64,000 bases of DNA from an uncultured Gammaproteobacteria bacterium. Lineage in GTDB: Bacteria > Patescibacteriota > Patescibacteriia > Patescibacteriales > UBA12465. The position numbers and the translations under genes were made by a program. Below are positions 1 through 60,316 of the stretch, in pieces (the first letter of the stretch is position 1; the number at the start of each line of letters is the position of its first letter). Below the pieces are notes generated by a model, which worked only from the letters and a program-made list of their open reading frames with translations, searched no databases and was not told where the DNA came from. The stretch spans positions 143,273 to 207,272 of the forward strand of contig CAZXEE010000002.1 of NCBI GenBank assembly GCA_964639785.1. The letters are read 5' to 3'.

Positions 1-1
1 C

Positions 2-184
2 CTTTATTTCCTGTTTTATCTAAGCGCTTTTTTGTCTGATGGAAAATTCTTTTTGTGGCAGGCTAATTTTTGGCAAGGATTGGGATTAGAATTGGCTTGG
101 AACCTGGGGATAGTCTTCTTGTTCTTCTGGGTAATGAATCTGACCACTACCAAACTCAAGCCGGTTTTCTTGGATAAGCGCTAG
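2..184 (+). CDS. 3' end of an unidentified hydrophobic protein that starts upstream of the window
   Basis: Frame 2 is open from the window edge to TAG at 182-184 (...FLWQANFWQGLGLELAWNLGIVFLFFWVMNLTTTKLKPVFLDKR). Hydrophobic, no family recognised. Absent from the ORF track because it has no in-window start. Confidence 0.3.
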   Translation, partial: LYFLFYLSAFLSDGKFFLWQANFWQGLGLELAWNLGIVFLFFWVMNLTTTKLKPVFLDKR

Positions 185-189
185 AATTG

Positions 190-198
190 TGCTATAAT
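190..198 (+). promoter_or_regulatory. Extended -10 promoter element TGCTATAAT upstream of the PfkB kinase gene
   Basis: TTGTGCTATAAT lies 25 nt before ATG 224. The same 12-mer recurs at 25276-25287, and TGCTATAAT recurs on the minus strand at 19369-19377. Confidence 0.5.
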
Positions 199-223
199 TT
201 TAAAGAATTATTTAAATATCTTT

Positions 224-6838: not shown

Positions 6839-8090
6839 TGTTATCACTTCAATCAAGATTTCTTTACGGTCGATGGTGTCCAATAAGTCGCGGACATTAT
6901 TGACTGTTTTAGGTATCGCGATCGGTATTGCTAGTGTCATTATCGTCTATTCAGCGGGTGAGGGAATTCGAGGGTTATTAGTTGACCAGCTGCAATCTTT
7001 CGGCACTAATATTATCCAGACTGAGGTTCGGGTGCCAACCGGGAAGAAGGGCAGTTCCGGAGAAACGGATAGTGCGATGGCTATCGCTTCCGGCGTGCAG
7101 GTTACAACTATGACGCTTGAGGATGTGGATGACGTAAAGAAGTTGAATAATATCAGCGGCGGTTATGGCGCTGTATTGAGCCAAGAAAAAGTCAGCTATG
7201 GCAATGAGTCTCGCAAGTCCTTCATTTTCGGCGTCAGTGCTGATTATGCTCAGATCGACAAGATGGAAATCGCTCAGGGTAATTTTTTCAGCGATGAGGA
7301 GGATAAATCATTGGTTCAGGTGGTGGTTCTGGGTAGTAAGATGAAAGAGAAACTGTTTGGCGATTCTGATCCGATCGGAAAATATATTACTTTGCGCAAA
7401 TCAAAGTTCAAGGTAATCGGAGTGGCTAAGCCTAAGGGCGCGGTGATGAGCATGGACTTTGATGATTACGTTTATGTTCCGATCAGGACTTTGCAGAAGA
7501 AAATCATGGGTATCGATTATCTGATGTATATGGTCCATGAATTCGTCGATGAGAAGGCTGTGGCGGATACGGCGGAAGAGATAAAATATATCTTGCGCGA
7601 GAATCATGATATCAGCGATCCGAGCAAGGATGATTTCCGGGTTTCTACCATGGAAGACATGATGCAGACCTTGAATACGGTTACCGATGCTATCACTTGG
7701 CTGCTTTTGGCTATTGTCATCATCTCTTTGATCGTTGGCGGCGTCGGCATCTTGAATGTGATGTATGTCATAGTGAGTGAGAGAACGGCAGAAATCGGAT
7801 TGAGGAAGGCTATAGGGGCGAATTACAATAATATCATGATCCAGTTCTTGGTGGAGGCAGTGCTGATCACTTTGGTCGGGGCAATATTGGGTATTATCGG
7901 CGGCGTGTTGTTTTCATGGCTAATTAGCGTGGGAGCGAATCTGGCCGGTTTTAATTGGACTTTCTCTGTGCCTTTGAAAGCTTTTGTGATTTCCTTGATT
8001 TTTGCCTTTACTTGTGGTATTTCTTTTGGTGTCTATCCGGCCAAAAGAGCGGCCAGTTTGGATCCGATCGAGGCTTTGCGGAAAGAATAA
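6831..8090 (+). CDS. MacB-type ABC permease (FtsX domain), paralog 2
   Basis: 419 aa. Same architecture (ERTAEIGLRKAIGA). Its start overlaps the previous stop (ATGAATAA), implying translational coupling. Confidence 0.85.
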   Translation: MNNVITSIKISLRSMVSNKSRTLLTVLGIAIGIASVIIVYSAGEGIRGLLVDQLQSFGTNIIQTEVRVPTGKKGSSGETDSAMAIASGVQVTTMTLEDVDDVKKLNNISGGYGAVLSQEKVSYGNESRKSFIFGVSADYAQIDKMEIAQGNFFSDEEDKSLVQVVVLGSKMKEKLFGDSDPIGKYITLRKSKFKVIGVAKPKGAVMSMDFDDYVYVPIRTLQKKIMGIDYLMYMVHEFVDEKAVADTAEEIKYILRENHDISDPSKDDFRVSTMEDMMQTLNTVTDAITWLLLAIVIISLIVGGVGILNVMYVIVSERTAEIGLRKAIGANYNNIMIQFLVEAVLITLVGAILGIIGGVLFSWLISVGANLAGFNWTFSVPLKAFVISLIFAFTCGISFGVYPAKRAASLDPIEALRKE

Positions 8091-8128
8091 TTTTTATAAA
8101 TAAAATATTATAAACTAACTACAAAAAT

Positions 8129-8881
8129 ATGCCGCTATACTGGCTATTAATCGTTTTGATCGTGTTCTTCGTTGTCTGTTTGAAGCAGATCAACCAATAT
8201 GAGCGTGGAGTCAAATTTACCATGGGAAAATTTTCCGGAGTCATGGAGCCAGGCTGGAAGATCTTGATTCCAGTTTTTCAAACCTTTCAGAAAGTCGATA
8301 TGCGTATCAAGGCCGTTGACGTTCCGGACCAGAGAGCTATCACCAAGGATAACGTGCCGGTAACCGTTAATGCCGTTATCTATTACAAGATTGCCGATCC
8401 AGCTAAAGCGATTATCGAAGTGGAAAATTTTTATTACGCCATTTCCCAATATGCTCAGACTACTATGAGAAATATCGTGGGCGAGGTCACTTTAGATGAG
8501 TTATTATCCCAACGCGACAAGATTGCTGACCGTATTCGGGAGATTGTCGATAAGGAAACTGATGAGTGGGGCTTGAAGGTTAATAATGTCGAGTTGAAGG
8601 ATGTCTCTTTGCCGGAATCAATGGAAAGGACTATCGCCAAGCAGGCTGAGGCGGAAAGAGAGAAGAGGGCAGTGATCATCAATTCTGAAGGTGAAGTGGC
8701 TGCCTCCGAGAACATCGCTAAAGCGGCTAATATCTTGTCAGCTTCGACCGGTGCCCTTCATCTGAGAACTTTGCAGTCTATTAATGACTTATCTTCCGAT
8801 CAATCTAATACTGTAGTCTTCGTGACCCCAGTAGAAATCTTGAAAGCTTTTGAGGGTTTTACCAAGAAGATTGAGAAATAA
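8129..8881 (+). CDS. SPFH/band-7 (stomatin/prohibitin-like) membrane protein
   Basis: 250 aa. N-terminal TM, then QYERGVKFTMGKF ... TKDNVPVTVNAVIYYKI ... and a C-terminal AEAEREKRA coiled coil. Confidence 0.85.
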   Translation: MPLYWLLIVLIVFFVVCLKQINQYERGVKFTMGKFSGVMEPGWKILIPVFQTFQKVDMRIKAVDVPDQRAITKDNVPVTVNAVIYYKIADPAKAIIEVENFYYAISQYAQTTMRNIVGEVTLDELLSQRDKIADRIREIVDKETDEWGLKVNNVELKDVSLPESMERTIAKQAEAEREKRAVIINSEGEVAASENIAKAANILSASTGALHLRTLQSINDLSSDQSNTVVFVTPVEILKAFEGFTKKIEK

Positions 8882-8908
8882 TTTTTGCTATTTTTAGATA
8901 TTCAAAAA

Positions 8909-8935
8909 AAGACCAGATTTCACCTGGTCTTTTTT
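8909..8935 (+). terminator. Rho-independent terminator after the SPFH gene
   Basis: AAGACCAG / CTGGTCTT stem with a 7-nt loop, followed by a T-run. Confidence 0.7.
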
Positions 8936-8937
8936 GC

Positions 8938-8966
8938 TTGACTTGGGGCTAATCTTTTGTTAAACT
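8938..8966 (+). promoter_or_regulatory. Candidate promoter of the toxin-antitoxin pair (TTGACT-17-TAAACT)
   Basis: Hexamers at 8938-8943 and 8961-8966 with a 17-nt spacer, directly after the terminator. Confidence 0.4.
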
Positions 8967-8995
8967 AAAGATAACTTTTTATTAACCCAAAAAAT

Positions 8996-9211
8996 ATGGA
9001 AAATCTAATTGCTTTAAAGGACCTGCGTCTTAATATGGAAAAATATGCTACTAAAGTTAAATCCGGGCAGTCTTTTATCGTGCTGAAGCAAAGCAAGCCG
9101 ATATTCAAGATAGCGCCAGTTTCTGAGGAGGCTGAGTGGGAGGAGGTTATTGATTTTACTAAGATAAAAAAGGGCGGTGTCAATATTGACGAATTATTGT
9201 CTCGTCTTTAA
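8996..9211 (+). CDS. Type II antitoxin, Phd/YefM-like
   Basis: 71 aa. The N-terminus (LKDLRLNMEKYATKVKSGQSFIVLKQSKPIFKIAP) resembles Phd/YefM antitoxins. Its stop lies 3 nt before the toxin start. Confidence 0.6.
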   Translation: MENLIALKDLRLNMEKYATKVKSGQSFIVLKQSKPIFKIAPVSEEAEWEEVIDFTKIKKGGVNIDELLSRL

Positions 9212-9214
9212 TCT

Positions 9215-9460
9215 ATGGATAAGATTGTTAAGGCTATTAATAAATTGTCAGCCAAAGAAAAGGCTGAAATTAAAAAAGTTTTAGAGCGGATAAGGAGTAA
9301 TTCTTTATCCGGTTTTGATTTGAAAAAATTAAAGAATAGCCTGGATATCTATCGAATTAGAAGGGGAAAACTTAGAATTATCTTTCAGGTCAAGAAGAGC
9401 GGTGAAATTATGGTTTTGGCGGTTGAAAGGCGATCTGACAATACTTATAATAATTATTAG
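9215..9460 (+). CDS. Type II toxin, RelE/ParE family
   Basis: 81 aa. LKKLKNSLDIYRIRRGKLRIIFQVKKSGEIMVLAVERRSDNTY matches the RelE/ParE core pattern (YRIRvG.yRiiy...i.v..i.hR...Y). Confidence 0.7.
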   Translation: MDKIVKAINKLSAKEKAEIKKVLERIRSNSLSGFDLKKLKNSLDIYRIRRGKLRIIFQVKKSGEIMVLAVERRSDNTYNNY

Positions 9461-9466
9461 TTTTTA

Positions 9467-9495
9467 TTGACTAAACCCTGTTAATGCGTTAATAT
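9467..9495 (+). promoter_or_regulatory. Candidate mreB promoter (TTGACT-17-TAATAT)
   Basis: Hexamers at 9467-9472 and 9490-9495 with a 17-nt spacer, 25 nt before ATG 9521. Confidence 0.5.
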
Positions 9496-9520
9496 TGTCA
9501 TATATTATTAAAGAAATCAT

Positions 9521-10534
9521 ATGTTTATCAAGAGAATCGGTATCGATTTAGGTACAACTTATACGTTGGTTTACTTGCCTAAGAGGGGTGTGGTTATCAA
9601 CGAGCCTAGTGTGGTGGCAGTGTCGGTTGATGACCGGAAGATTTTAGCTGTGGGTAATGAAGCTAAGGATATGTTAGGAAGGACTCCAGACACTATTATC
9701 GCTCTCCGTCCTTTGAAGGATGGAGTGATTGCTGACTACAAGACTACTGAAGCGATGATCCGATATTTTATCAATAAGACTTTGGGCGGTATGCGTATCT
9801 TCCGTCCGGAAGTCATGGTAGCGGTTCCGGCCGGCATCTCTTCGACTGAGAGAAGAGCGGTAATCGAAGCGACTCTGGCGGCTGGTGCAAAGGCAGCTTA
9901 TATCATCAAGGAACCGGTAGCAGCGGCTATTGGAGCTGATATACCGATCAGTTCAGCAGCTGGACATATGATTGTCGATATCGGTGGCGGTACGGCTGAA
10001 ATGGCAGTTATTTCTTTGGGTGGCGTGGTTGCTTCGACTTCTGTCCGTGTCGGCGGAAATAAATTTGATTTGGCTATTCTGGAATATATCAAGAAGAAAC
10101 ATAATCTGGTAATCGGCGAAAGGACAGCAGAAGAGATTAAGATTAAAGTTGGTTCAGCCTTATTCTTATCCGATGAAGAGAAGTTAAGCATGGAAATCAA
10201 TGGCCGCGATTCAGTCAATGGTTTGCCTCGGACTATTATTATTACCAGTGATGATGTGACAGAAGCTATCCAGAGTGAATTGGAAGAAATTTTGAATGCG
10301 ACTAAGAGAATTTTGCAGGAAACTCCTCCAGAGTTGGTGGCTGATATTATCGACAAAGGAATTGTTATTTCTGGTGGTAGTGCTTTGCTTCGGAATATCG
10401 ATCAATTATTTTCTCGAGCTATCGGCGTTTCAGCTTATATTGCCGATGACCCGTTATTATGCGTAGCTAAAGGAACCGGTATTGCCTTGGATAATCTAGA
10501 TTCTTACAAGCGCAGTATCTTGGCGGCCAAGTAA
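9521..10534 (+). CDS. mreB: Rod-shape-determining actin homolog MreB
   Basis: 337 aa. IGIDLGTTYT, DIGGGTAEMAVISLGG and GIVISGGSALLRNID are actin/MreB phosphate and adenosine motifs. Confidence 0.9.
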   Translation: MFIKRIGIDLGTTYTLVYLPKRGVVINEPSVVAVSVDDRKILAVGNEAKDMLGRTPDTIIALRPLKDGVIADYKTTEAMIRYFINKTLGGMRIFRPEVMVAVPAGISSTERRAVIEATLAAGAKAAYIIKEPVAAAIGADIPISSAAGHMIVDIGGGTAEMAVISLGGVVASTSVRVGGNKFDLAILEYIKKKHNLVIGERTAEEIKIKVGSALFLSDEEKLSMEINGRDSVNGLPRTIIITSDDVTEAIQSELEEILNATKRILQETPPELVADIIDKGIVISGGSALLRNIDQLFSRAIGVSAYIADDPLLCVAKGTGIALDNLDSYKRSILAAK

Positions 10535-23356: not shown

Positions 23357-24961
23357 TTATTTTTTTTCTAATTTTTTCCGGTTGTTCATCAGCTTGGTGA
23401 TTACCGGCAGGATAAATTGGTTTCGGAGCTGGGGCATAGCGGCATAGACGCAGAAATCATTCTTGTCAGCGCTGTTGACGTTGTTGATATAGCTTTTGTA
23501 TTTCAATCCAGTATTTGAAAGATTTTTTACTTCTTGATCGATAGCGGCAATGATTTCTTGGTCTTTTTCTGGAGATCTGTCAGGACTATTTAGGTATGCT
23601 TGATATTTATTTTCTAAGGATTGATAGCGATCAGAAATCTCGATCATGTCCTTCTTCGTTTCAGCGGTAATGAGGTCAACGGCTTTTTCGGTGGATAAGA
23701 TTTTCTTTTCATGTTCATTGTCGGATGGGATTTCAATCCGGTGGCTCTCCATCAGGTGGTTAACCAAGCCATTGCCTTTCTCTGGTAATCCTTTGAATTG
23801 TAACCAGAGTTCTTTCAGCGATTCTTGGGCTTTTTTGGCTTCGGTGGTTGGAGGGTCGATTTGAGCGATTTTTTCAATCATCTGGTCGATAGAGTCTTCG
23901 AATTTCTGATTATCTAGATTGATGACATTAAAGATTCGCTGTAAGGCTTTGGCATTCAAGAATCCTTTGTTTTCCCAGCCTTTTAGGGTATACAAAGCGA
24001 ATTCATTGACGGTATTCTTGAGGTATAACTCTTCGGCGGTCTTTTCGCTGCCGATATTAGCTTTAACTCCATTTATATCGACTACTTCTAAATCTTGCGG
24101 TTCAGCGCCTAGGTTTATGATGCCATTTTTGTTCTTGCCTTGTCGGTTGATTTCGTCGTCCATATTCTGAGCGAAGGCCTCCATTTCCTTCCAGCCCTCT
24201 CCAGCTTTAATGAAGCAATGGATTTTGACGCAGCCATTTTTTTCTTGGCCGAATTTACGCAATTCTTCTACGGATAAATCTTTGACCAATCCTTGTTCTT
24301 GGAGTTTGAGAAGACGGGAATAAGCACCGTCGGTATATTTAGCCACTTTGTTTTTAGTCCGGCCTTCAGGATTTTTTTCTTCAACAATATCCTTGATATC
24401 GATTCCTAGATCTTTAATACCAAAAATGACATCCAGGTCATCTGGAATCTTTTCGGAATGTTCGGTGTGTGGGATATAACAGTTAGAACCGATGAGGGCA
24501 TAAGGGTATTTTCCTTGGTTGAATACCTGGCCGCAGATAATGGCGATAGCTTCTTTCATTTCCGGAGAAATCTTTTCGTTGAAACGTTTCTGGATTTTTT
24601 CGCTGGCTTCAGTCATCCTAGTCATCTTAGCTTCATTGGTTTCAGTTTGATAGTTGGGCAGATGTTCTATGGCCGATTCTTTGGTTTCTTGGTCTATCTT
24701 GTTTTCAGTTTCAGCTGTTAGCTCTTCGATGATGCCTTCTAGATTGACGATGGTATCCTGAGTCATGTTAAAATTAGCATCCTTGGTGGTGGATAATTTT
24801 TTAGCCTTTTCAGCTAGCGATTTGACGACTTCATGCCCGATAATATAGTCGTGGTTTATTTCCGCTTTCTTCTCATCAGCCTTTTCTTGGAGAATTTTTT
24901 GGTCGGCTTCTCTAGCTTCGATGGATTCTTTTTTGTTTTCTAGTTTTTTTTCTTTATCCAT
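23357..24961 (-). CDS. Large Lys/Glu-rich hypothetical protein with a possible minimal nucleotidyltransferase-fold core
   Basis: 534 aa uninterrupted ORF. The central segment YALIGSNCYIPHTEHSEKIPDDLDVIFGI fits hG[GS]-x(n)-[DE]h[DE]h. The rest is predicted helical and unassigned. Confidence 0.6.
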   Translation of the reverse strand: MDKEKKLENKKESIEAREADQKILQEKADEKKAEINHDYIIGHEVVKSLAEKAKKLSTTKDANFNMTQDTIVNLEGIIEELTAETENKIDQETKESAIEHLPNYQTETNEAKMTRMTEASEKIQKRFNEKISPEMKEAIAIICGQVFNQGKYPYALIGSNCYIPHTEHSEKIPDDLDVIFGIKDLGIDIKDIVEEKNPEGRTKNKVAKYTDGAYSRLLKLQEQGLVKDLSVEELRKFGQEKNGCVKIHCFIKAGEGWKEMEAFAQNMDDEINRQGKNKNGIINLGAEPQDLEVVDINGVKANIGSEKTAEELYLKNTVNEFALYTLKGWENKGFLNAKALQRIFNVINLDNQKFEDSIDQMIEKIAQIDPPTTEAKKAQESLKELWLQFKGLPEKGNGLVNHLMESHRIEIPSDNEHEKKILSTEKAVDLITAETKKDMIEISDRYQSLENKYQAYLNSPDRSPEKDQEIIAAIDQEVKNLSNTGLKYKSYINNVNSADKNDFCVYAAMPQLRNQFILPVITKLMNNRKKLEKK

Positions 24962-30802: not shown

Positions 30803-31195
30803 ATGGCAGTAAGAATAGCCGGCGTGACCATCCCTACCGAAAAAAGAGTGGTAATCGCCTTAACCTATATCTATGGCATCGGCAATACTAAGGCCGCTTC
30901 GATCTTAGCCAAAGCTAAAATCGATCCGTCGGCTCGGGTTAACACCTTGAGTGATGATGAAGTCAATAGAATCAGAGAAATAATCGAAAAGAATAACTTG
31001 GTCGAAGGTGATTTGCGTCGCGATGTTGCTAGCAACATCAAACGTTTGAAAGAAATAGGATCTCTGCGCGGTTCTCGCCATGCCAAGAATTTACCAGCTC
31101 GTGGTCAAAGAACTAAGACTAATAGTCGTACCGTTCGTGGTAATAAGCGTGTTACCATGGGTTCAGGCCGAGCTAAAGCTGCTCAGAAAACCTAA
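30803..31195 (+). CDS. rpsM: 30S ribosomal protein S13
   Basis: RIAGVTIP...ALTYIYGIG...EGDLRR...[20 protein letters not shown]. Confidence 0.95.
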
Positions 31196-31226
31196 TAATT
31201 TGAATTAATAAAATAAGAATTTAAAT

Positions 31227-31844
31227 ATGGCAGAAGAAAAGAAACAACAGGATGAAGAAGCTACTATCGTAGCTGCTCCTGAAATCAATGAAGATGATGC
31301 TTTGGATGCAGATTTTGCTCCAGAGAGTCTTGATGATTTGGAAGATGACGATGACGAGGTAGAGGAAAGCGTTACTCAGATCATGTCCGCTGATGAAGAA
31401 TTACCGGAAGAAATCAAGCAAAAATTAGAAAAGAATAAACAGGCTAGAGCTAAGAAGAAATTAGTCAAGAAAAAGAAGCGGAAAGTAGCCAAAACCGTTA
31501 AATCCGGCAAGGCTTTCATTAACGCTACTTACAACAATACCATCTTATCTTTGACTGATAATAATGGTGATGTCATTTCTTGGGCCAGTGCCGGTTTAGC
31601 TGGCTTTAAGGGTGCTAAGAAAGCTACTCCTTATGCTGCTCAGATCATCACTAAGATTGCTGTCCAGAAGGCCAAGGAAGAATACGGCTTGGAAGAAGTT
31701 AAGGTTTTTGTTTCTGGTGTCGGTACCGGCCGTGAAGCAGCTATCCGCGCTTTGAATGCTAATGGTTTGAACGTGACCGTTATCAAGGATGTTACTCCAA
31801 TTCCACACAATGGTTGCCGTCCAAAGAAACCAAGACGTGTTTAG
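31227..31844 (+). CDS. rpsK: 30S ribosomal protein S11 with an N-terminal acidic/basic extension of about 85 aa
   Basis: The C-terminal 120 aa is canonical S11 ([14 protein letters not shown]...[15 protein letters not shown]). At 205 aa it is well above the roughly 130 aa typical length. Confidence 0.95.
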
Positions 31845-31868
31845 TTAATCATTAAATAAAATCATTAT

Positions 31869-32498
31869 ATGGGAAAAAATTTAGCGCCAAAATGTAAGCA
31901 GTGCCGCCGCCTCGGAGAAAAATTACTCTTGAAAGGCGATCGTTGCGCTACTCCAAAATGCGCCATGGTAACACGTAATTATGTTCCTGGTATCCATGGT
32001 CCGAAAGGCAAGAAGCGTTCTAGCGACTACGGTTTGCAGTTAGCTGAAAAGCAGAAAGCTAGAAAGATTTATGGCCTGATGGAAAAACAATTCCGTTTAA
32101 CTTTTGATAAGGCTCGTCATCACGCTGGTGATACCGGTAAGAATTTCTTGAAATTCTTGGAAATGCGCTTGGATAATGTTGTCCATCGTGCTGGCTTCGG
32201 TGCTTCCCAGACCCAGGCTAGACAATTGGTTAACCACGGCCATTTTACAGTTAACAATCGCAAGGTTGATGTCCCGTCATTTGTTGTTAAGACTGGCGAT
32301 GTTATCAAAATCAAGAAAGCTAGTTCTAAAAATCGTTATTTTAGAGATTTAGGTGAAAAGATGAAGAAAGTCGAGCTTCCAAGCTGGTTGCATTTCGATG
32401 CTTCCGATCTTTCTATCAAGGTTTTGCATGAACCGGGAGAAAATGACATGCCAAAAAATGTGAACGTTCAGATGATCATCGAGTTCTACTCCAAATAA
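31869..32498 (+). CDS. rpsD: 30S ribosomal protein S4
   Basis: 209 aa. Has the N-terminal Cys cluster KCKQCRR...CATPKC and an S4 RNA-binding domain. Confidence 0.95.
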   Translation: MGKNLAPKCKQCRRLGEKLLLKGDRCATPKCAMVTRNYVPGIHGPKGKKRSSDYGLQLAEKQKARKIYGLMEKQFRLTFDKARHHAGDTGKNFLKFLEMRLDNVVHRAGFGASQTQARQLVNHGHFTVNNRKVDVPSFVVKTGDVIKIKKASSKNRYFRDLGEKMKKVELPSWLHFDASDLSIKVLHEPGENDMPKNVNVQMIIEFYSK

Positions 32499-32525
32499 TC
32501 ATTTGTTTCACTAAATTAATTAATT

Positions 32526-32585
32526 AATTGTTAAATTGCTAAATTGTTTTTTAAAAATAATTTAACATTCAACAATTTAACAATT
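32526..32585. repeat. 60-nt AT-rich imperfect palindrome (13-bp perfect outer arms) immediately upstream of rpoA
   Basis: AATTGTTAAATTG (32526-32538) is the exact reverse complement of CAATTTAACAATT (32573-32585). Inner arms TAAATTGTTTT / AAAATAATTTA also pair. TAAATTG and AATTTAACA are each duplicated. Confidence 0.7.
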
Positions 32586-32590
32586 TGTTT

Positions 32591-33376
32591 ATGGAAAAAA
32601 TTTCTCTACCTAAAAAAATTGAATTTAAGAATGGTGAACAGCCTCACGAAGGCGTAGTGACCGTTGAACCTTTATATCCTGGTTACGGCATGACTTTGGG
32701 TAATTCCTTACGTCGCGTCTTATTATCTTCTTTGTCTGGCGCTGCCGTTGTTGGCGTCAAGATCAAAGGTGCTAGCCATGAATTTATGGCTATTCCTAAC
32801 GTTAAAGAAGATGTTTTGGAAATCGTTTTGAATTTGAAACAATTGCGTTTCAAGATGCACAGCGAGGAAGAAATCAAATTAGAATTGTCCGTTTCTGGTA
32901 AGAAGGCTGTAAAGGCTTCAGATATCACCAAGAATAGCCAGGTAGAAATTATCAATCCAGATTTAGTTTTAGCTAACATCACTGATCCAGCTGGAAATTT
33001 GAATATGGAAATCTATATCCGTCCAGGACGTGGTTATCAGTTGACTGAAAGCGACAAGAAAGCTAGCAATGAGATCGGTTATATTGAAGTTGACGCTATT
33101 TTTTCCCCAATTTTGGCAGTTTCTAGCAATGTGGAGAATGTCCGTGTTGGTAAGATGACTAACTGGGACAAGCTGATTATTAATATCAAGACTGATGGCA
33201 CTATCACTTATGAGGAAGCTTTCAAGGAATCCGCTCAGATCTTAATTGATCAATTCAACGCTTTGTTGTCTGGTCCGGAAAAGGAAGAGGCTGAAGAAGC
33301 GGAAGAGGAAGAAGTTGAAACAGAAGAAGCGGAAGAGGAAGTAAAGGAAAAGAAAGCTAAAAAAGCTAAAAAATAA
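32591..33376 (+). CDS. rpoA: DNA-directed RNA polymerase alpha subunit, N-terminal domain only, with an acidic/lysine tail
   Basis: The alpha-NTD motifs are clear (GYGMTLGNSLRRVLLSSLSGAAV, IYIRPGRGY). The ORF ends after about 225 aa of NTD plus EKEEAEEAEEEEVETEEAEEEVKEKKAKKAKK. No alpha-CTD helix-hairpin-helix sequence is present. ATG 32591 is preferred to TTG 32585. Confidence 0.9.
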   Translation: MEKISLPKKIEFKNGEQPHEGVVTVEPLYPGYGMTLGNSLRRVLLSSLSGAAVVGVKIKGASHEFMAIPNVKEDVLEIVLNLKQLRFKMHSEEEIKLELSVSGKKAVKASDITKNSQVEIINPDLVLANITDPAGNLNMEIYIRPGRGYQLTESDKKASNEIGYIEVDAIFSPILAVSSNVENVRVGKMTNWDKLIINIKTDGTITYEEAFKESAQILIDQFNALLSGPEKEEAEEAEEEEVETEEAEEEVKEKKAKKAKK

Positions 33377-33404
33377 TTTTATATAATAATAATTCCTGAA
33401 AGGT

Positions 33405-33755
33405 ATGCGACATAACAATAAGGTAAAAACCCTGGATCGACCCAAAGAAGCTCGCGAGTTAATGCTCCGTAATCTGGCTTCCAGCGTTTTACTGTACGAA
33501 AAAGTAGTAACTACTGAAGCTAAGGCTAAAGTGGTCAAGCCATTAGTGGAGAGACTGATTACCATCGCTAAGACCGGTGATCTTAATTCTCGCCGTAAAT
33601 TAATCCAGGTTCTTCTCCAGAAGAACGCGGTTAAGAAATCGATGGAAGTTTTAGGGGAAAGATATAAAACCAGAAACGGTGGCTATACTCGTATCGTGAG
33701 ATTAGGTAATCGCCAAGGCGATGGAGCTCAGATGGTACAGTTAGAGTTGGTCTAA
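33405..33755 (+). CDS. rplQ: 50S ribosomal protein L17
   Basis: MRHNNKVKTLDRPKEARELMLRNLA... canonical L17 N-terminus. Confidence 0.95.
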   Translation: MRHNNKVKTLDRPKEARELMLRNLASSVLLYEKVVTTEAKAKVVKPLVERLITIAKTGDLNSRRKLIQVLLQKNAVKKSMEVLGERYKTRNGGYTRIVRLGNRQGDGAQMVQLELV

Positions 33756-33768
33756 TAATTTTAATACT

Positions 33769-34128
33769 ATGAAAAATATCATTGAACGAAAACTTCATAA
33801 AATCGATGCCACCGATCAAACCATCGGTCGTATGGCTACCAGAATCGCTACCTTATTGCGCGGTAAGAATAAGTCTACTTATCAGCCTCATTTGGATGAA
33901 GGTGATATCGTAGAAGTTTCTAATATCAAATTTGCTAAGTTTACTGGCAAGAAATTGAATCAGAAATTGTATTATCGCTTTACCGGTTATCCAGGCGGTC
34001 TTCGGACCAAGAAGATGTCTGATGTCATGAAGACTAAGCCGGAAGTCGTTTTGCAGAAGGCTGTCAGAGAGATGCTTCCTCCGACCAGATTACGTCCAGC
34101 GATGATGAAAAGATTAATTATTAAATAA
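33769..34128 (+). CDS. rplM: 50S ribosomal protein L13
   Basis: IDATDQTIGRMATRIATLLRGK...YYRFTGYPGG. Confidence 0.9.
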   Translation: MKNIIERKLHKIDATDQTIGRMATRIATLLRGKNKSTYQPHLDEGDIVEVSNIKFAKFTGKKLNQKLYYRFTGYPGGLRTKKMSDVMKTKPEVVLQKAVREMLPPTRLRPAMMKRLIIK

Positions 34129-34144
34129 AATTACGACTAATAAT

Positions 34145-34621
34145 ATGGCAGAAAAAAAGACTGTAAAAAAAGTCGCTAAGCCAGTTGCCAAGGAAAAGGA
34201 AGTAGAAAAGAAAAGCGAGGCTGCTGATTTTTCCGGCAAATACATCCAGGCTATCGGCCGCCGCAAGACTGCTGTCGCCCAGGTTCGTCTTTATGAAGAT
34301 GGCAAGGGTTCGATGGTCGTTAATGGCATCAAATTAAGCAAATATTTTCCTGGCGATCTAGCTTCTAATGCTGTTCAGGCTTTGAAATTAACCAGCCATT
34401 TGCGCGATTTCAACGTTTCAGTTATCGTTCGTGGCGGTGGAAAATCAGGTCAGGTAGAGGCTGTTAGACATGGCATTTCCCACGCTTTATTGAAATTCGA
34501 TGAGAAATTACGCGAGGTCTTGAGCACTTCCGGATTATTGACCCGCGATAAGCGTGAAGTTGAAAGAAAGAAACCAGGTTTACGCAAGGCTCGCAAGGCC
34601 CCACAGTGGTCAAAACGTTAA
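34145..34621 (+). CDS. rpsI: 30S ribosomal protein S9 (Lys-rich N-terminal extension)
   Basis: GRRKTAVAQVRL...RGGGKSGQVEAVRHGISHAL...KAPQWSKR. Confidence 0.95.
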   Translation: MAEKKTVKKVAKPVAKEKEVEKKSEAADFSGKYIQAIGRRKTAVAQVRLYEDGKGSMVVNGIKLSKYFPGDLASNAVQALKLTSHLRDFNVSVIVRGGGKSGQVEAVRHGISHALLKFDEKLREVLSTSGLLTRDKREVERKKPGLRKARKAPQWSKR

Positions 34622-35086: not shown

Positions 35087-35098
35087 ATTAGTGTGGTT

Positions 35099-36253
35099 AT
35101 GAATAAGCCTAATAAAAGAACAGCTTTTACCCTTATTGAGCTTTTAGTTGTAATAGCTATTATTGGTCTTTTGGCGACTATTTCTGTTTTGGCCCTGCAG
35201 AATGCTCGAGCTAAATCTCGTGATGCCAAGCGGGTGGCTGACATGAAGCAGGTCCAGACTGCTTTGGAGATGTTTTTTAATGATAATAATCGATATCCGA
35301 CTGCTGAAGAATGGAATGCCGGCAGGCTTTATTCCACTACTACCGGTGTCACTTCTACCTATATACAGATCATTCCTAATGCTCCAACTCCGGCTGATGG
35401 ATCTTGTACTGGAAATCAGAATTCTTTCGAGTATATTCCTGGTTCAGATAATTCTTCTTATTCCATCTCTTTTTGTTTAGGTGGTGTTATCGGATCATTA
35501 GCTTCCGGCCCGAAATGTTTGGATCCGGGAGGAATAATGGACCGGCCTTGCTTTTTATGCGGTACTGATCAGATGGTTATTGCTTCAGTTGGAAATCGTG
35601 CTTGTGATACGGCAGCCCCTTATTATGATAAATGTGTTTATGATACCGTACAGATAGGTGACCAATGCTGGATGAATCAGAATATGAACATTGGTAATAT
35701 GACTAATGGCGTAAATAATCAGGGTGATTATTCCAGCGGGGTAGAGAAGTATTGTTTTGAAAATAATCAGATTAACCCTAATCCTACAGATTATGTTAGT
35801 TCTGGTGGTTGTGATACTGATGGCGGCTTATATCAATGGCATACTGTAATGGGGCTTCCTCAGATTTGTGATAATCATGATGGTACCGCTCCTTGCGTAG
35901 TCAATATTAATCATCAAGGTATTTGTCCGAGTGGTTGGCATATTCCGACAGATGAGGAGTGGGCTGCTCTTAAAACCTATTTGGGGGGTAGTGGCGTAGC
36001 TGCTAAAATTGAAGCCCAGGCCCCAGTTTGGAATGGTACTAATTCTTCTGGATTTAATGCGCTTCGAACAGGTGTCAGAGGGACAGATGGTATTTTTGGC
36101 AGTCATTATGCTGTCACTTTTTTTCGGTCCACTCACATGGATTCATTAAATTATGGCTGGAATCACTGGCTTTATAATGGTGATCCAGATATTAATCGAG
36201 GCAACTATTCAAGATATTCTGGTTACTCACTCCGTTGTTTAAAGAATAATTAA
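35099..36253 (+). CDS. Type IV prepilin-like N-terminus fused to a FISUMP domain, paralog 2
   Basis: MNKPNKRTA|FTLIELLVVIAIIGLLA, then ARAKSRDAKRVADMKQVQTALEMFFND, then IGDQCWMNQNMNIG, GGLYQW, CPSGWHIPTDEEWAAL, GFNALRTGVRG and YSLRCLKN. The track start is GTG 35093. Confidence 0.85.
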   Translation: MNKPNKRTAFTLIELLVVIAIIGLLATISVLALQNARAKSRDAKRVADMKQVQTALEMFFNDNNRYPTAEEWNAGRLYSTTTGVTSTYIQIIPNAPTPADGSCTGNQNSFEYIPGSDNSSYSISFCLGGVIGSLASGPKCLDPGGIMDRPCFLCGTDQMVIASVGNRACDTAAPYYDKCVYDTVQIGDQCWMNQNMNIGNMTNGVNNQGDYSSGVEKYCFENNQINPNPTDYVSSGGCDTDGGLYQWHTVMGLPQICDNHDGTAPCVVNINHQGICPSGWHIPTDEEWAALKTYLGGSGVAAKIEAQAPVWNGTNSSGFNALRTGVRGTDGIFGSHYAVTFFRSTHMDSLNYGWNHWLYNGDPDINRGNYSRYSGYSLRCLKNN

Positions 36254-54400: not shown

Positions 54401-55075
54401 ATGTCAGAAGAAAAAAAACAAACCAATGAAGCCAGAGAAGGCGCTGTTTCTGAAGCGGTTGCCAAGACCATCTACGGCGGCAATACTAAACAGAACCCTA
54501 ATTTCCGTGGCGGCCAAGGTGGACGGGGCGGAAGAGCAGAGAGACGTGGCGACAAGAGATTTGAGAAGAAGGACGATATGGAACAGAGAATCTTGGATAT
54601 CGCTCGCGTAACTCGTGTGATGAAAGGCGGAAAACGTATGAGCTTCAGGGCTTGCGTAGTTTTAGGCGACAAGAAGGGAAATATCGGTATCGGCTTAGGC
54701 AAGGGTGCTGATGTGACTATGGCCGTCAATAAAGCTGTTAACCAGGCAAAGAAGCATATGATCGTTGTTAACACCATTAATGATACTATTCCTCATGAAA
54801 TCAGAAAGACTATCGGTGCTGCTTCAATCATGTTCAAGCCAGCCCAAAAGGGTAGAGGTGTTATCGCTGGCGGAGTGGTTCGCGTTATCTTGGAATTAGC
54901 CGGTGTCAAGAATGTTACCAGCAAGATCTTAGGTACCAACAACAAGATCAATAATGCTAATTGCACTATCCAAGCTTTAGCTAGTTTGAGAAAAGTAGAA
55001 AAGAAAGTTAAGGCAGTTAAGGTGGAAGAAAAGGTGGCCAAGGTAGAAAAGAAGGAAAAGAAAGCCGCTAAATAG
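54401..55075 (+). CDS. rpsE: 30S ribosomal protein S5 with an RGG-rich N-terminal and a Lys-rich C-terminal extension
   Basis: S5 core (RVTRVMKGGKRMSFRACVVLGD...). The N-terminal roughly 58 aa include FRGGQGGRGGRAERRGDKR. The tail is VEKKVKAVKVEEKVAKVEKKEKKAAK. Confidence 0.95.
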   Translation: MSEEKKQTNEAREGAVSEAVAKTIYGGNTKQNPNFRGGQGGRGGRAERRGDKRFEKKDDMEQRILDIARVTRVMKGGKRMSFRACVVLGDKKGNIGIGLGKGADVTMAVNKAVNQAKKHMIVVNTINDTIPHEIRKTIGAASIMFKPAQKGRGVIAGGVVRVILELAGVKNVTSKILGTNNKINNANCTIQALASLRKVEKKVKAVKVEEKVAKVEKKEKKAAK

Positions 55076-55555: not shown

Positions 55556-55572
55556 CTTTGAATAATAATCAT

Positions 55573-56847
55573 ATGGTCATAGAAAAAATCAGACAAATTT
55601 GGAAGGCACGTGATGTACGTAACAAGATATTGTTTGTTTTGGGCATGTTAGTTATTTTTCGTTTAATTGCTCACATTCCAGTTCCAGGCGTTAATACTCA
55701 GGCCTTGAAACAGCTGTTCAGTTCTAACCAGGTTTTGGGCTTAATGGATCTGTTTTCCGGAGGTGGCATGAAGAATTTCTCCGTCGTGATGATGGGTGTC
55801 GGTCCTTATATAACTTCTTCTATTATTTTCCAGCTCTTAGGTATGATCGTCCCGAAATTAGAAGAGATGCAGAAAGAAGAATCAGGACGCCAGAAGATCA
55901 ATATGTGGACCCGTTGGGCTACTGTTCCTTTGGCTATCATGCAAGCTTATGCGATGATTAACCTTTTGCAGCGTTCTTCTCGCAATATCATTACCAGTAC
56001 CAGCAGTTTCGATCTCTTTATGATGGTTATGACAGTTACTGTCGGTACTATGTTCTTGATGTGGTTGGGTGAATTGATTTCTGAGAAGAAGATCGGTAAT
56101 GGTATTTCTTTACTTATCTTTGCCGGTATCATTTCAGCTTTACCTCAGACTTTATCCCAGCTTTTCTTGACTTTTGACCAGTCTCAATTATTTACTCTGA
56201 TTGGTTTTGCTGTAATTGCCGTTGTTACTGTCGTCGGCGTGGTTATCATTAATGAAGGCCAGAGAAATATTCCAGTCCAATATGCTCGTCAGATTAGAGG
56301 CAGCCGGACTTCCGGTGGAACCTCTACCCATTTGCCTCTCAGAGTCAATATGGCTGGCGTGATTCCGATTATCTTCGCTATCTCAATCATTATGTTCCCG
56401 TCAATGGTAGCCCAGTTCTTCGTTAGTGCGAAGACTGCCTGGATTGCTAATTTTTCCCAGTGGACCATCGATCTTTTCCAGAACCAGCTTTTTTATGGCA
56501 TTATCTATTTCTTGTTAGTATTTGCTTTCACTTATTTCTATACCGAAATCGTTTTCCATCCGGAACAGATTGCCGAAAATTTGCAGAAACAAGGCGGATT
56601 TATTCCTGGTATCAGACCGGGACGCCACACTGCCGAATACTTGGGTAATACTACCCACAAGATCATCTTGATCGGCGCTTTGTTCTTGGGCTTGATTGCC
56701 GTCTTGCCGTTAATCATGCGCTATTTTACCGGCATCCAGTCATTGGCTATCGGAGGTACCAGCTTGCTGATCGTCGTTTCAGTGGTTATCGATACTGTCA
56801 AGCAGATTAAATCCCAGTTGACTATGCGGGAGTATGATGGAATATAG
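55573..56847 (+). CDS. secY: Preprotein translocase subunit SecY
   Basis: 10-TM protein. ILFVLGMLVIFRLIAHIPVPGV and GGTSLLIVVSV. The track start TTG 55558 abuts the hairpin, so ATG 55573 is preferred. Confidence 0.95.
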   Translation: MVIEKIRQIWKARDVRNKILFVLGMLVIFRLIAHIPVPGVNTQALKQLFSSNQVLGLMDLFSGGGMKNFSVVMMGVGPYITSSIIFQLLGMIVPKLEEMQKEESGRQKINMWTRWATVPLAIMQAYAMINLLQRSSRNIITSTSSFDLFMMVMTVTVGTMFLMWLGELISEKKIGNGISLLIFAGIISALPQTLSQLFLTFDQSQLFTLIGFAVIAVVTVVGVVIINEGQRNIPVQYARQIRGSRTSGGTSTHLPLRVNMAGVIPIIFAISIIMFPSMVAQFFVSAKTAWIANFSQWTIDLFQNQLFYGIIYFLLVFAFTYFYTEIVFHPEQIAENLQKQGGFIPGIRPGRHTAEYLGNTTHKIILIGALFLGLIAVLPLIMRYFTGIQSLAIGGTSLLIVVSVVIDTVKQIKSQLTMREYDGI

Positions 56848-56876: not shown

Positions 56877-56905
56877 AAGAGGCTCGATATCGAGCCTCTT
56901 TTTTG
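56877..56905 (+). terminator. Strong Rho-independent terminator after secY
   Basis: AAGAGGCTCGA / TCGAGCCTCTT stem followed by TTTTTT. Confidence 0.8.
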
Positions 56906-56916
56906 TTGCCGTTAAA

Positions 56917-56945
56917 TTGATTTCCATCTGATTATATGGTATAAA
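56917..56945 (+). promoter_or_regulatory. Candidate promoter (TTGATT-17-TATAAA) of the 751-aa ORF / map unit
   Basis: Hexamers at 56917-56922 and 56940-56945, with a 38-nt leader to ATG 56984. Confidence 0.45.
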
Positions 56946-56983
56946 TAAGGTATCAATATTTATCATTAATTATTATCAAGCAT

Positions 56984-59239
56984 ATGTCTCTGTCAGAAAA
57001 ATTAGAGACTGGAAGATTAGATTTGGATATGAAGCGTTTAGAGGAGGCGATAGCGTCCAATCTTTCTAAAGGTCAAAAAATATTTGGACTGACTAATTTA
57101 TTGATTAATAAGTCTAACAGTAATTTGGCTGATATTAAGCAAAAAAATGAGAAAATAGCTGAACATTTCGCTGGTTATGAAGAGCTTGACGGTCGTCCGG
57201 CAAGTGTTAAGGATCAATTGAAACAAGAGCTATCTTATTTGGATTTGAAGTTTTCCGGAGGCAAGAAAGGCGGTAAATCTAATCAAGAGCTAGCCCTGGA
57301 AAAGATCATGTCCCATCTGGAGTCTTTGCGGGAAGAAATTGATAGCTTAAAGAAGGAACATCATGATAAATATCGACAGACCCCTGAAGGACTGGCTGAG
57401 GCTGCTCGAGAGGCGGAGTATAGGGCGGAATGCAGCCGAGAGGTGTTGTCTAGTTTGTCTCGTCCTGATGATTTTGAAAAGATTAGCCATCTCAAGATTT
57501 CACCACGGCATTTGGAAATCGCCGGATCGTATGGCGTTGAGCTGACCCAAGAGATGATCTTGGAAGAATGGAAGCGGATGGTAGAGGAATTATTATTGCA
57601 TCAGAAGTTTGCGGCCCACAAGGATCGGATTCAGAATTTCCAGAAGCACAAACCATTTATTGATAATTTTTCTGACTACAACAAGAAGTTTGAGCAGATT
57701 AAGGATTGGGTGGCCAGCTTAAAGGGATTGCGGGACCAAGCCGTCTTGGCTTTAGCCAATATCATTTCTGATAGCGAGGAGATAAAGCGGAGATTCCATC
57801 ATTATGGAATCAGCGGAGCCAGCCTTAATCCGGCGGTCAGACGGATGCTGACTAATTATGATGATTTATCTGAGAACCAAGTATATGATAGCCCGGCAGC
57901 TCTGGCCTATGAATACATCAATCATCTTTTGGCGGCCAGTATCGGTTCCGGTGATAGCCGGAACAATGCTTTTGATGATTTCGTGAAGCTTTGTAATTTC
58001 CGGTACTATTCGGATAGCCAATGTCCGGGAGCGGATGCTTTCGGTCAGAAGTATAGTCCGGAAGATTTTGCTTTCTTCGACCGGCAGGATTATAACCCCG
58101 AAACATTGCTTTGTTTCTGTGCCAATTGGGGCCGTTTGATTTCTAATCTGCGCGATGAGATCAAAGCAGAGGGCCGGAATATCAGTCCTCGGGGCTTTAT
58201 CGCCAGCTTTGGCCAGAAGAACTATGATTTGATTAAGAGGTTGCCGAAACTATCGGTTCCGGAAGCAAAAATAGCTGATTTTCCGAAGGAATATGTCGAG
58301 CCTCATGGTTCTTGGAGCCAGAAATACTTTGAAGATGAAAATTGGTATAACCAATTTACAGCCTTGATTAAGCAGTCGGCACAAAAGTTAGAAAAGCTTT
58401 TGCCAATCCGTTGGCTGGAGGAAGAATTGGATCGGAAGAAACGGCAGAATCCTGAAATCTGGGAAGTCTTGGAGCGCAAGATCAAGCTAGCTGAATACCT
58501 GAAATTCTTGGAAAAGAACCATGACTATCATCGCCGCCGCCCAATTGGTATCAGAGTTGATGCTGACGGGAAGATAATGCTCTTGGATAATCGAGGACGT
58601 CAGGATGAAGCTGACAAGAAAGTGGAGTATAACTTGCTTGAGGAATCATATAAGGAATATCTGAAGAAGGAGATTGCGGCTATCATCTTTGAAATCAGAC
58701 AAACAGAGAATAAGATTTTTGTTCGGAAGAACGAATTAAAAGTCCTCAATGATCGTCTCGGAACTTATCAGATATTGAGCAGTTATAGCTTGGCGGACAG
58801 GATCTATGGCCGGGTTCATTCAGAGTCATATAAAGAATCGTCTTTAGCTTCGGAAGAGTTACAGGAGATCGATCATTTCTGTAAATTAGGTTATAAGAAT
58901 TTGAAACAACAACAGGAAATCAAGCAGCGATATGAAGCAGTTGAAAAAGACCTGAACCGCCATCCGGAAAAGCTTGAAGCTCGTTTGTTATCTGAGTATC
59001 CGGACTTAGTTCGGAATATCTCGGTCTACGAACAATTGATTTCCGGATTAAAGTTGATAAATACCGCTTTATCTAGTTTGATCCGAGAAAAACATACTGC
59101 TTTGATTAGGAATTTTAGTGCGAAGAATAAGAAATATAAAGAGCTGATCAATGACTATAACCGCATCTACCATCGTGAAGGAGCTTATCCTTTAACCCCG
59201 GCAATCGATTCTAGGGAAGATCTGGTCGCTTATCTATAA
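56984..59239 (+). CDS. Large cytoplasmic hypothetical protein of unknown family, in the position normally held by adk
   Basis: 751-aa uninterrupted ORF with no TM or signal peptide. Charged and predicted helical. Only one weak motif (GGKKGGKS, aa 92-99, fits GxxxxGK[ST]). Confidence 0.6.
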   Translation: MSLSEKLETGRLDLDMKRLEEAIASNLSKGQKIFGLTNLLINKSNSNLADIKQKNEKIAEHFAGYEELDGRPASVKDQLKQELSYLDLKFSGGKKGGKSNQELALEKIMSHLESLREEIDSLKKEHHDKYRQTPEGLAEAAREAEYRAECSREVLSSLSRPDDFEKISHLKISPRHLEIAGSYGVELTQEMILEEWKRMVEELLLHQKFAAHKDRIQNFQKHKPFIDNFSDYNKKFEQIKDWVASLKGLRDQAVLALANIISDSEEIKRRFHHYGISGASLNPAVRRMLTNYDDLSENQVYDSPAALAYEYINHLLAASIGSGDSRNNAFDDFVKLCNFRYYSDSQCPGADAFGQKYSPEDFAFFDRQDYNPETLLCFCANWGRLISNLRDEIKAEGRNISPRGFIASFGQKNYDLIKRLPKLSVPEAKIADFPKEYVEPHGSWSQKYFEDENWYNQFTALIKQSAQKLEKLLPIRWLEEELDRKKRQNPEIWEVLERKIKLAEYLKFLEKNHDYHRRRPIGIRVDADGKIMLLDNRGRQDEADKKVEYNLLEESYKEYLKKEIAAIIFEIRQTENKIFVRKNELKVLNDRLGTYQILSSYSLADRIYGRVHSESYKESSLASEELQEIDHFCKLGYKNLKQQQEIKQRYEAVEKDLNRHPEKLEARLLSEYPDLVRNISVYEQLISGLKLINTALSSLIREKHTALIRNFSAKNKKYKELINDYNRIYHREGAYPLTPAIDSREDLVAYL

Positions 59240-59249
59240 TTTTAAATTT

Positions 59250-60020
59250 ATGGTAACGATAAAAACAGCCAAAGAAATCAATATTATCCGCCAAGGCGGA
59301 CATAAGCTAGCCCTTATCCTGCAGGCTTTAGCTAAGGCTTGCAAGCCGGGTGTAGACACTGGCTATCTGGAACAGATGACTAATGATCTGATTATCAAAG
59401 CCGGTGGCCGTCCCGCTTTCAAGGGTTACGATATGGGCGATGGCATCTATTTTCCGACAGCTTTATGCGCTTCTATTAATAATGAAGTGGTCCATGGCGC
59501 AGCTCTTCCAGCTCGCGTTTTAAAGTCAGGGGATATTATTGATTTGGATATCGGTATGGAGTGGCAGGGTCTTTATACTGACACTTGCTTGACGGTCGGG
59601 GTGGGGAAGATTAGTAAGGAAGCCAAGCAATTGATCCGAGTTACTAAGGAAGCTTTGGAAATCGGCATCAGACAGGTTAAGCCAGGCAATACTTTGAATG
59701 ATATCGGATCAGCTATCGAGAATTTCGTAGACCAATATGGTTATGGAGTGGTTCGCGATTTAGTCGGCCATGGAGTGGGTTATCAAGCTCATGAAGATCC
59801 GAATGTTTTCAATTATGCTATTCCGAAGAATTCCCGCGAGAATATCACCTTGAAAGAAGGAATGGTGATCTGTATCGAACCGATGATCAATTTGGGAACT
59901 TGGGAGGTCAAGACGGCCAAGAATGGTTATACCATCCTGACGGATGATAATTCTTTGAGCGCTCATTTTGAACATACCATAGCAGTGACTAAAAAAGGTT
60001 ATGAGATATTGACCAAATAA
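59250..60020 (+). CDS. map: Methionine aminopeptidase, type I
   Basis: 256 aa. NNEVVHG, DIIDLDIG, GHGVG and the EHTIAVT metal-ligand contexts. Confidence 0.92.
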   Translation: MVTIKTAKEINIIRQGGHKLALILQALAKACKPGVDTGYLEQMTNDLIIKAGGRPAFKGYDMGDGIYFPTALCASINNEVVHGAALPARVLKSGDIIDLDIGMEWQGLYTDTCLTVGVGKISKEAKQLIRVTKEALEIGIRQVKPGNTLNDIGSAIENFVDQYGYGVVRDLVGHGVGYQAHEDPNVFNYAIPKNSRENITLKEGMVICIEPMINLGTWEVKTAKNGYTILTDDNSLSAHFEHTIAVTKKGYEILTK

Positions 60021-60023
60021 AAA

Positions 60024-60055
60024 AGGCGGACGTTTTGTCCACCTCTTTATTTTTG
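60024..60055. terminator. Bidirectional terminator between map and the convergent small ORF
   Basis: AGGCGGAC / GTCCACCT stem (7 of 8 pairs) flanked by an A-run and a T-run. Confidence 0.6.
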
Positions 60056-60064
60056 TCTTTTTTA

Positions 60065-60316
60065 TTATTCGGTTTTTCCTTCCTTGGAAGTTTCAACTTC
60101 TTTTCCGTCATCTTTGAAGCAGCCCCATTCTTTCATTTCGAACGGGTATGATTCCAGTTCTTTGGGGTTACTGGGAACCGGGTCTTCGTAGATGGTTTCC
60201 ATCTCAATTTCCATCAAATACTTGTAATATATTCCGGATCCGGTTGTGGGTCTGGTCTGAGAGAATCCCAGAGTGGCGGCAAGTGCCAGAGCAAGGGTAA
60301 GCAGGGCAGTTTTCAT
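60065..60316 (-). CDS. Small secreted hypothetical protein
   Basis: 83 aa. Signal-peptide-like N-terminus MKTALLTLALALAATLGFSQ, then an acidic mature part. No family recognised. Confidence 0.45.
   Translation of the reverse strand: MKTALLTLALALAATLGFSQTRPTTGSGIYYKYLMEIEMETIYEDPVPSNPKELESYPFEMKEWGCFKDDGKEVETSKEGKTE

Follow-up and report, generated by a model that had tools for sequence, protein, structure and literature searches.

An unannotated, predicted all-helical protein family of Patescibacteria at the secY-map junction of a Falkowbacteria clade

In bacteria, the expected gene order places adk, encoding adenylate kinase, between secY and map. In a 64,000-nucleotide (nt) stretch of an uncultured patescibacterial genome (contig CAZXEE010000002.1 of assembly GCA_964639785.1), in the following referred to as the window, this place is occupied by an orphan open reading frame (ORF) of 751 amino acids (aa). 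The locus therefore raises the question whether the ORF replaces adk and whether its coupling to map, the gene of the type I methionine aminopeptidase, points to an action on nascent chains, as suggested in an original prediction made from this DNA. Our analysis leans towards a simpler answer, namely a native, vertically inherited gene encoding a soluble all-helical protein of a small family of the Candidate Phyla Radiation (CPR), which was inserted in front of map and whose product would serve as a non-enzymatic scaffold or adaptor.

Using Map as an anchor, we located relatives lacking the ORF and compared their secY-map junctions with that of the window. The ORF was present in all loci showing upstream context with a Map at least 81% identical to the window protein. 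A 569-kb Falkowbacteria contig (L010) and a further locus (L011), both with a Map 66–68% identical, exhibited the order secY-map-ruvX-recO-DUF5671-scpA-scpB, where the gap of ~105 nt between secY and map comprises the terminator hairpin and a TGTGTTATAAT promoter only, with neither adk nor the ORF. Likewise, terminator and promoter are located directly 5' of map in L009 (Map 71%), with stop codons in all frames. As L010 and L011 display secY, terminator, promoter and map without adk or the ORF, the ORF represents a later insertion and not a replacement of adk, so that the replacement originally proposed does not hold, whereas the lineage-specific insertion named there as a fallback is favoured by L010 and L011. 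Judging from these loci, by the time the ORF arrived the secY transcript ended at its terminator, map was served by a promoter of its own and adk had either moved elsewhere or been lost. In the ancestor of one genus-level Candidatus Falkowbacteria clade, the ORF would then have entered downstream of the pre-existing secY terminator, separating the map start codon from the promoter and leader of map, and promoter, ORF and map would have acted as one transcription unit since. The description of the ORF as an orphan at a conserved position needs to be narrowed, the position being kept only within this clade (Map ≥81%): the ORF lies next to map in nine of its lineages, and the sisters with a Map of 66–71% lack it at this site, an outcome that the original prediction had itself named as speaking against it.

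The absence of adk from the window itself was confirmed, as tblastn searches with the E. coli and B. subtilis Adk sequences yielded a best E-value of 0.29, elsewhere in the window. All that adenylate kinase (PF00406) has in common with the ORF is its place on the chromosome and, in this one sequence, a Gly/Lys patch formally fitting a Walker A motif; the two Adk queries comprise ~215 aa as compared to 751 aa for the ORF product, and the Pfam ADK model did not match the ORF at E ≤ 1. Literature searches for Falkowbacteria with adk, or for CPR with secY, map and adk, returned nothing relevant.

We analyzed the transcriptional signals flanking the ORF, where a strong terminator after secY and a TTGATT-17-TATAAA promoter had been noted; both are present. 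The secY terminator folds with -19.9 kcal/mol (z=-5.3), a stability reached by none of 200 shuffled sequences. An alignment of the upstream regions indicated that 7 related loci retain its hairpin despite changes on both arms, and the terminator is also found 3' of secY in sister genomes without the ORF. The promoter carries a TGG directly 5' of TATAAA, forming an extended -10 element. The site escaped a consensus promoter scanner that accepts only a -10 hexamer with T as its sixth letter. Across 8 related loci, including L007 and L018, there is nevertheless no change in the blocks AAATTGAT and TTAT.TG.TATAA, an invariance that argues more strongly for a promoter than a consensus match would.

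The context of the ORF could be followed in nine lineages (window/L017, L001-type, L020, L002-type, L005-type, L018, L007, L013/L024 and L023), and in 9/9 of them the ORF lies immediately 5' of map, with a spacer of 4–12 nt in the seven lineages measured. Neither a terminator nor a promoter was found between ORF and map in the ORF-bearing lineages compared, and RNA folding of the window spacer gave no significant hairpin (z=-1.9), in agreement with the initial description of a map gene starting 10 nt after the ORF stop. Even in L007 and L018, where a gene is inserted after secY, it is the invariant promoter that lies immediately 5' of the ORF. Based on this adjacency, the short spacer, the invariant promoter and the lack of intervening signals, co-transcription of ORF and map is well supported: on comparative sequence grounds, promoter, ORF and map very probably form one conserved transcription unit with a shared transcript, as originally put forward. 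The inserted genes differ between the two loci. The one of L007 (260-1585), located between secY and the ORF promoter, encodes a type-IV-pilin-like protein of 441 aa, likened to pilins by its N-terminal FTLIELLVV and its resemblance to a window protein with N_methyl and Fib_succ_major domains (35093-36253), and the one of L018 (2799-3233), at the same place, encodes a membrane-anchored protein of 144 aa. In the ORF-bearing clade, the secY-map junction thus looks like a hotspot of insertion.

A word-indexed search of 5.8e9 proteins yielded 11 homologues with 44–98% identity to the ORF product, ten of them full-length (749–807 aa) and one partial (532 aa), all devoid of Pfam domains and of frame disruptions. 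One of the 11 is labelled Candidatus Falkowbacteria. The gene is present in four GTDB species representatives, three labelled Falkowbacteria and one 'Patescibacteria group'. For the closest pair, the ORF and the 98%-identical L017 allele, we obtained a dN/dS (ratio of non-synonymous to synonymous divergence) of 0.127 at a dS of 0.08. The codon adaptation index (CAI) of 0.555, at a third-position GC content (GC3) of 0.458, is comparable to the value of 0.576 ± 0.051 for the non-ribosomal genes of the window, and no anomaly in GC content was observed at the ORF. A spurious ORF is excluded by the conservation and the dN/dS, and a recent horizontal acquisition was rejected on the basis of the native composition and codon usage. 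Together, these data characterize the ORF, at the level of sequence, as a real, native gene under purifying selection.

Despite this constraint on its closest pair, the ORF diverges much faster than its surroundings. Within the ORF-bearing loci, the identity to the window proteins amounts to 88–92% for SecY, 87–90% for Map, 88–92% for AsnS, 73–81% for RuvX and 74–77% for RecO, whereas the ORF protein reaches only 47–55% in the same loci. Its Kimura protein distance is about 3.2–4.8 times that of Map, RuvX and RecO combined in most pairs. The contrast is sharpest between L001 and L002, where the nucleotide identity of 83–92% in the flanks drops to 52–68% within the ORF, the change coinciding with the gene borders. 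Here, the dN was 0.35 for the ORF and 0.03–0.055 for the flanking genes, corresponding to 7–12 times that of SecY, Map and RecO, and differences at 4-fold sites were found in 54/104 positions of the ORF as compared to 140/401 in the flanking genes. The L002 allele (7710-10052, P0009) stands out, as its flanks are at a distance of 0.07 to L001, L020 and L023 and its ORF at 0.61–0.72, a ratio of ~9 versus ~3.5 elsewhere. In a neighbour-joining tree of the ORF this allele branches basally, incongruent with its flanks, which suggests that either recombination replaced this allele once or its changes came in a burst. Apart from L002, the tree of the ORF is largely consistent with that of the flanks.

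A profile search against 1.84e9 cluster representatives returned only 18 family members, six close and twelve distant, the twelve showing ~20% identity and E-values from 4e-17 to 9e-5 and those of full length comprising 733–789 aa. An hhalign comparison of the close with the distant set yielded a probability of 100% and E=3.3e-38 across 637 columns, which establishes the two sets as homologous over almost their full length. The window ORF displays all features defining the family: a length of ~730–810 aa, an MSL amino terminus, the pattern [LI]x[FL]xF[ST]GGKK..SNRE, a long helix and a TPEG turn. Among close and distant members, no variation was seen at F90, T133 and G136 and hardly any at K95 and R101. 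The 12 columns invariant throughout the family consist of M, S, L, F, T, G, P and Y residues, devoid of any D, E, H or K, which argues against a conserved catalytic centre. As sampled by these searches, the family is small, restricted to Patescibacteria (CPR) and fast-evolving.

Genomic contexts could be inspected for five distant members (L012, L014, L015, L016 and L025), and neither map, secY nor ribosomal-protein genes were found near any of them (0/5). Metallophos and radical-SAM genes lie upstream in L012, L014, L015 and L025, followed in L012 and L015 by YgjP and NUDIX; SOD and His_Phos genes lie downstream in L012, L014 and L015, and the L016 member is surrounded by glycan-related genes. 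Because the distant members sit elsewhere, the linkage to map is a derived trait of one clade and not a trait of the family. The Metallophos-radical SAM-NUDIX-SOD neighbourhood is absent from the window. Between L015 and L012, the family protein is 33% identical and its neighbours are 56–73% identical, indicating faster divergence there too. A possible paralogue beside the L016 member was rejected; this protein of 748 aa is unrelated and carries a hydrophobic segment.

We next turned to the protein itself, with a mass of 88 kDa and a pI of 6.6. The initial description of a product without transmembrane (TM) segment, signal peptide or known domain was borne out: the maximum Kyte–Doolittle 19-residue mean is 1.04, and searches of Pfam, NCBIfam, PHROGs and PADLOC yielded no match to the ORF (for PADLOC, zero families at E ≤ 1), nor did Pfam and NCBIfam give a consistent match across 16 family members. 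Whether started from the single protein or from the family profile, PDB sequence searches resulted in coiled-coil noise only (tubulin chaperone A, E=0.008; keratin, E=0.024). The AlphaFold2 (AF2) model, based on 12 sequences, is almost entirely helical with a mean predicted local distance difference test (pLDDT) score of 84.9 and a predicted template-modelling (pTM) score of 0.53. It comprises eight helices of 28–51 residues, where strands are limited to small hairpins or bridges of 3–6 residues without any parallel sheet, and can be divided into three regions (Table 1). Foldseek searches with the full-length model against the PDB and BFVD detected only generic long-helix matches, e.g. to microtubule inner proteins, with E ≥ 0.05 and template-modelling (TM) scores ≤ 0.19, and a separate model of aa 158–445 (pLDDT 75) found nothing in the PDB, the TM scores of all these searches staying ≤ 0.26. 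Comparing four segments with each other by hhalign revealed no internal repeats, and a scan with the alignment of close homologues found no relatives on viral contigs. Known ribosome and nascent-chain families (trigger factor, SRP/FtsY, PDF and Map) showed no profile or fold match to the ORF product. ATPase heads of the SMC/Rad50/RecN type were not indicated either, as Pfam SMC_N and AAA did not match and the modelled termini are helical; Foldseek matches to MukB and cohesin had probabilities ≤ 0.02. Structure and profile searches, proposed at the outset as a check, thus resulted in no confident match to any known family.

From general knowledge, EzrA with its spectrin-like fold and coiled-coil cytoskeletal proteins offer a lead, being likewise large, soluble and built from long helices; a further parallel is a sequence that diverges fast while its length and helix pattern persist. 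We do not claim membership, as the ORF product has no sequence or fold match to any of them (best PDB Foldseek E ≥ 0.4, TM score ≤ 0.26), no internal repeats and no TM anchor. Phage tail tape-measure proteins, the top BFVD matches, also have long helices in common with the model, but with E ≥ 0.05, TM scores ≤ 0.13 and a root-mean-square deviation above 30 Å the match is not meaningful, and the ORF differs from them by the lack of a PHROG match and of viral-contig relatives and by its context of chromosomal housekeeping genes. We infer that the ORF product may act as a non-enzymatic, cytoplasmic helical scaffold or adaptor, in which the overall length, the helix pattern, the hydrophobic core positions and the amino-terminal signature (MSL..., LKFSGGKK..SNRE and the TPEG turn) would be constrained, the signature probably contacting a partner.

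An enzymatic alternative starts from the segment GGKKGGKS, which is found exactly where it had been reported and formally fits the Walker A consensus GxxxxGK[ST]. In the close homologues, however, G97 is occupied by G, A, S or T and S99 by S, A, P or T, and across homologues G97 is also replaced by D or E; the conserved positions at the motif are F90, G92, K95 and N100. Distant members read ...GGKKDEEEMSN... or ...SAVTKKDADLSN... at the motif position, so that Walker A is absent. With a non-conserved Walker A and an all-alpha AF2 model without parallel beta-sheet core, a P-loop NTPase was ruled out. We consequently give almost no credence to a divergent P-loop kinase or NTPase standing in for the missing adenylate kinase, even though the formal fit of the motif and the lack of adk in the window speak for it, as Pfam ADK does not match and the ORF-less sister genomes have no adk at this site either, leaving nothing to replace. 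A coupling of the product to Map, the ribosome or the translocon, as a lineage-specific nascent-chain factor co-expressed stoichiometrically with Map, would account for the adjacency to map in nine lineages, with its spacer of 4–12 nt and a shared conserved promoter retained even where the linkage to secY is broken. The MSL amino terminus, invariant throughout the family, would moreover render the product a Map substrate; Ser at position 2 permits removal of the Met. On the other hand, the five distant members seen in context are all remote from map, secY and ribosomal-protein genes, sister Falkowbacteria with the same secY-map-ruvX-recO layout have no ORF there, similarity to trigger factor, SRP or known ribosome-associated factors is lacking, and a dN 7–12 times that of SecY, Map and RecO is not what one usually sees in a protein working with such conserved machinery. 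We regard such a coupling as distinctly unlikely, and the nascent-chain role raised by the original prediction finds no support beyond the adjacency. The ORF is probably linked to map because it draws on a constitutive housekeeping promoter and not because the two genes have a function in common.

The rapid divergence could also stem from an involvement in biological conflict or in interaction with a host, such as anti-phage defence or the episymbiotic lifestyle, with diversifying selection and allele exchange. Consistent with this, divergence is sharply confined to the ORF (52–68% nucleotide identity versus 83–92% in the flanks) and extends to 4-fold sites (54/104 versus 140/401), the L002 allele is basal in the ORF tree and incongruent with its flanks, and further genes have entered the region in individual lineages, among them genes of pilin-like and small secreted proteins. 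The dN/dS of 0.127 in the closest pair points in the opposite direction, as do the lack of PADLOC or PHROG matches and viral-contig relatives, the fixed chromosomal position with a housekeeping-type promoter, and the uniform rate ratio of ~3.5 in most lineages, consistent with steady weak constraint. In addition, only a single gene is involved, and its product shows neither a signal peptide or TM segment nor a domain of the nuclease, NTPase or sensor type; we consider a conflict role unlikely. As a long shot, the protein could be a new-fold component of Patescibacteria, either a cytoskeleton-like or organising scaffold or, in the Falkowbacteria clade, a Map-operon partner in co-translational amino-terminal processing; in that case, the MSL amino terminus and the LKFSGGKK..SNRE..TPEG signature would mark the binding site of a conserved partner. 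Several points weigh against the non-enzymatic scaffold or adaptor that we favour. Its assignment would follow from missing enzyme-like features and the modelled helical architecture and not from a positive match, and the pTM of just 0.53 renders the predicted domain arrangement uncertain. Furthermore, the polar clusters YDDL, DSPAALAYEY, FGQKY, FPKEY, RWLEEEL and LEKNxDYH are strongly conserved in the close clade and could make up an active or binding site particular to it. As no close member has lost the linkage to map, function could lie behind it after all, and the co-transcription of ORF and map is itself deduced from sequence.

With the insertion explained, the apparent anomaly of an adk replaced by a Map-coupled orphan dissolves into an ordinary explanation, and no sign of a new mechanism has emerged as yet. 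The residue is a well-delimited, confidently modelled family that receives no annotation from current libraries. In ultra-small CPR genomes, each retained gene of 2.3 kb is presumably useful, and unannotatable families of this kind make up a large part of the CPR 'dark matter'. The family could serve as a test case, since the insertion can be dated to one clade, the promoter is conserved, the evolutionary rate has been measured and one of the alleles is incongruent.

Table 1 Features of the secY-ORF-map locus and regions of the ORF product (nucleotide positions refer to the window).
Feature	Nucleotides	Residues	Strand	Description
secY	55558-56847		+	last gene of the S10/spc ribosomal-protein cluster; Pfam SecY E=1.6e-106
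Intrinsic terminator	56877-56905		+	ends the spc/secY transcript; hairpin 56877-56900 and U-run UUUUUUGUU
Putative promoter of the ORF-map unit	56917-56945		+	-35 TTGATT 56917-22, 17-nt spacer, -10 TATAAA 56940-45
Orphan ORF	56984-59239	1-751	+	ATG start; between secY and map
N-terminal region (AF2)		1-157		long helical hairpins, small beta element at the GGKK motif
Signature region	57245-57394	88-137	+	LKFSGGKK..SN(R/Q)E, long helix, TPEG helix-helix turn
GGKKGGKS	57257-57280	92-99	+	formally fits GxxxxGK[ST]
Middle region (AF2)		158-445		shorter helices
C-terminal region (AF2)		446-751		long helices, one beta hairpin
ORF-map spacer	59240-59249		+	10 nt, AT-rich, from ORF stop codon to map start codon
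map	59250-60020		+	type I methionine aminopeptidase, second gene of the ORF-map unit; Pfam Peptidase_M24 E=2.5e-44
Hairpin and U-rich tail 3' of map	60024-60058		+	-11.4 kcal/mol, z=-3.7

The hairpin 3' of map, also called as a minus-strand terminator by a terminator scanner, likely constitutes the end of the ORF-map transcript in the window lineage. As in other lineages ruvX and then recO abut map without a gap, this transcript end is lineage-specific. In the window, a minus-strand ORF of 83 aa (60065-60316) with a signal-peptide-like amino terminus (MKTALLTLALALAATLGFSQ) and without Pfam match lies between map and ruvX. It was found only in the window/L017 lineage, L001 and L002 having ruvX directly after map.

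A Shine–Dalgarno-like motif in the 25 nt upstream of the start codon was detected for 2/64 window genes, all 64 plus-strand genes being examined, and the gene leaders are AT-rich (...AAAT ATG), so that the source genome appears to start translation essentially without such motifs. The ORF-map spacer contains no Shine–Dalgarno motif in front of map, which is uninformative given their rarity in the window, and a translational coupling of ORF and map inferred from the missing motif was rejected for the same reason. The listed secY gene starts with TTG and encodes 429 aa, whereas the gene calls of relatives use an ATG five codons downstream, probably the true start, from which 424 aa are encoded.

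Scans of the window for tRNA genes and Rfam families returned none. A further large ORF of 534 aa on the minus strand (23357-24961) has no Pfam match at E ≤ 0.001. The alpha-operon (30803-34621, plus strand) with the order S13-S11-S4-rpoA-L17, followed by L13-S9, is located ~22 kb upstream of the S10/spc cluster and not after map. Its rpoA (32585-33376, plus strand) encodes 263 aa matching the N-terminal Pfam domains only (RNA_pol_L and RNA_pol_A_bac), the carboxy-terminal domain of the alpha subunit not being detected. Among the ribosomal proteins, S11 (205 aa) and S9 carry amino-terminal extensions of ~93 and ~37 aa, respectively, and S5 (54401-55075) exhibits an RGG-rich amino terminus and a Lys-rich tail.

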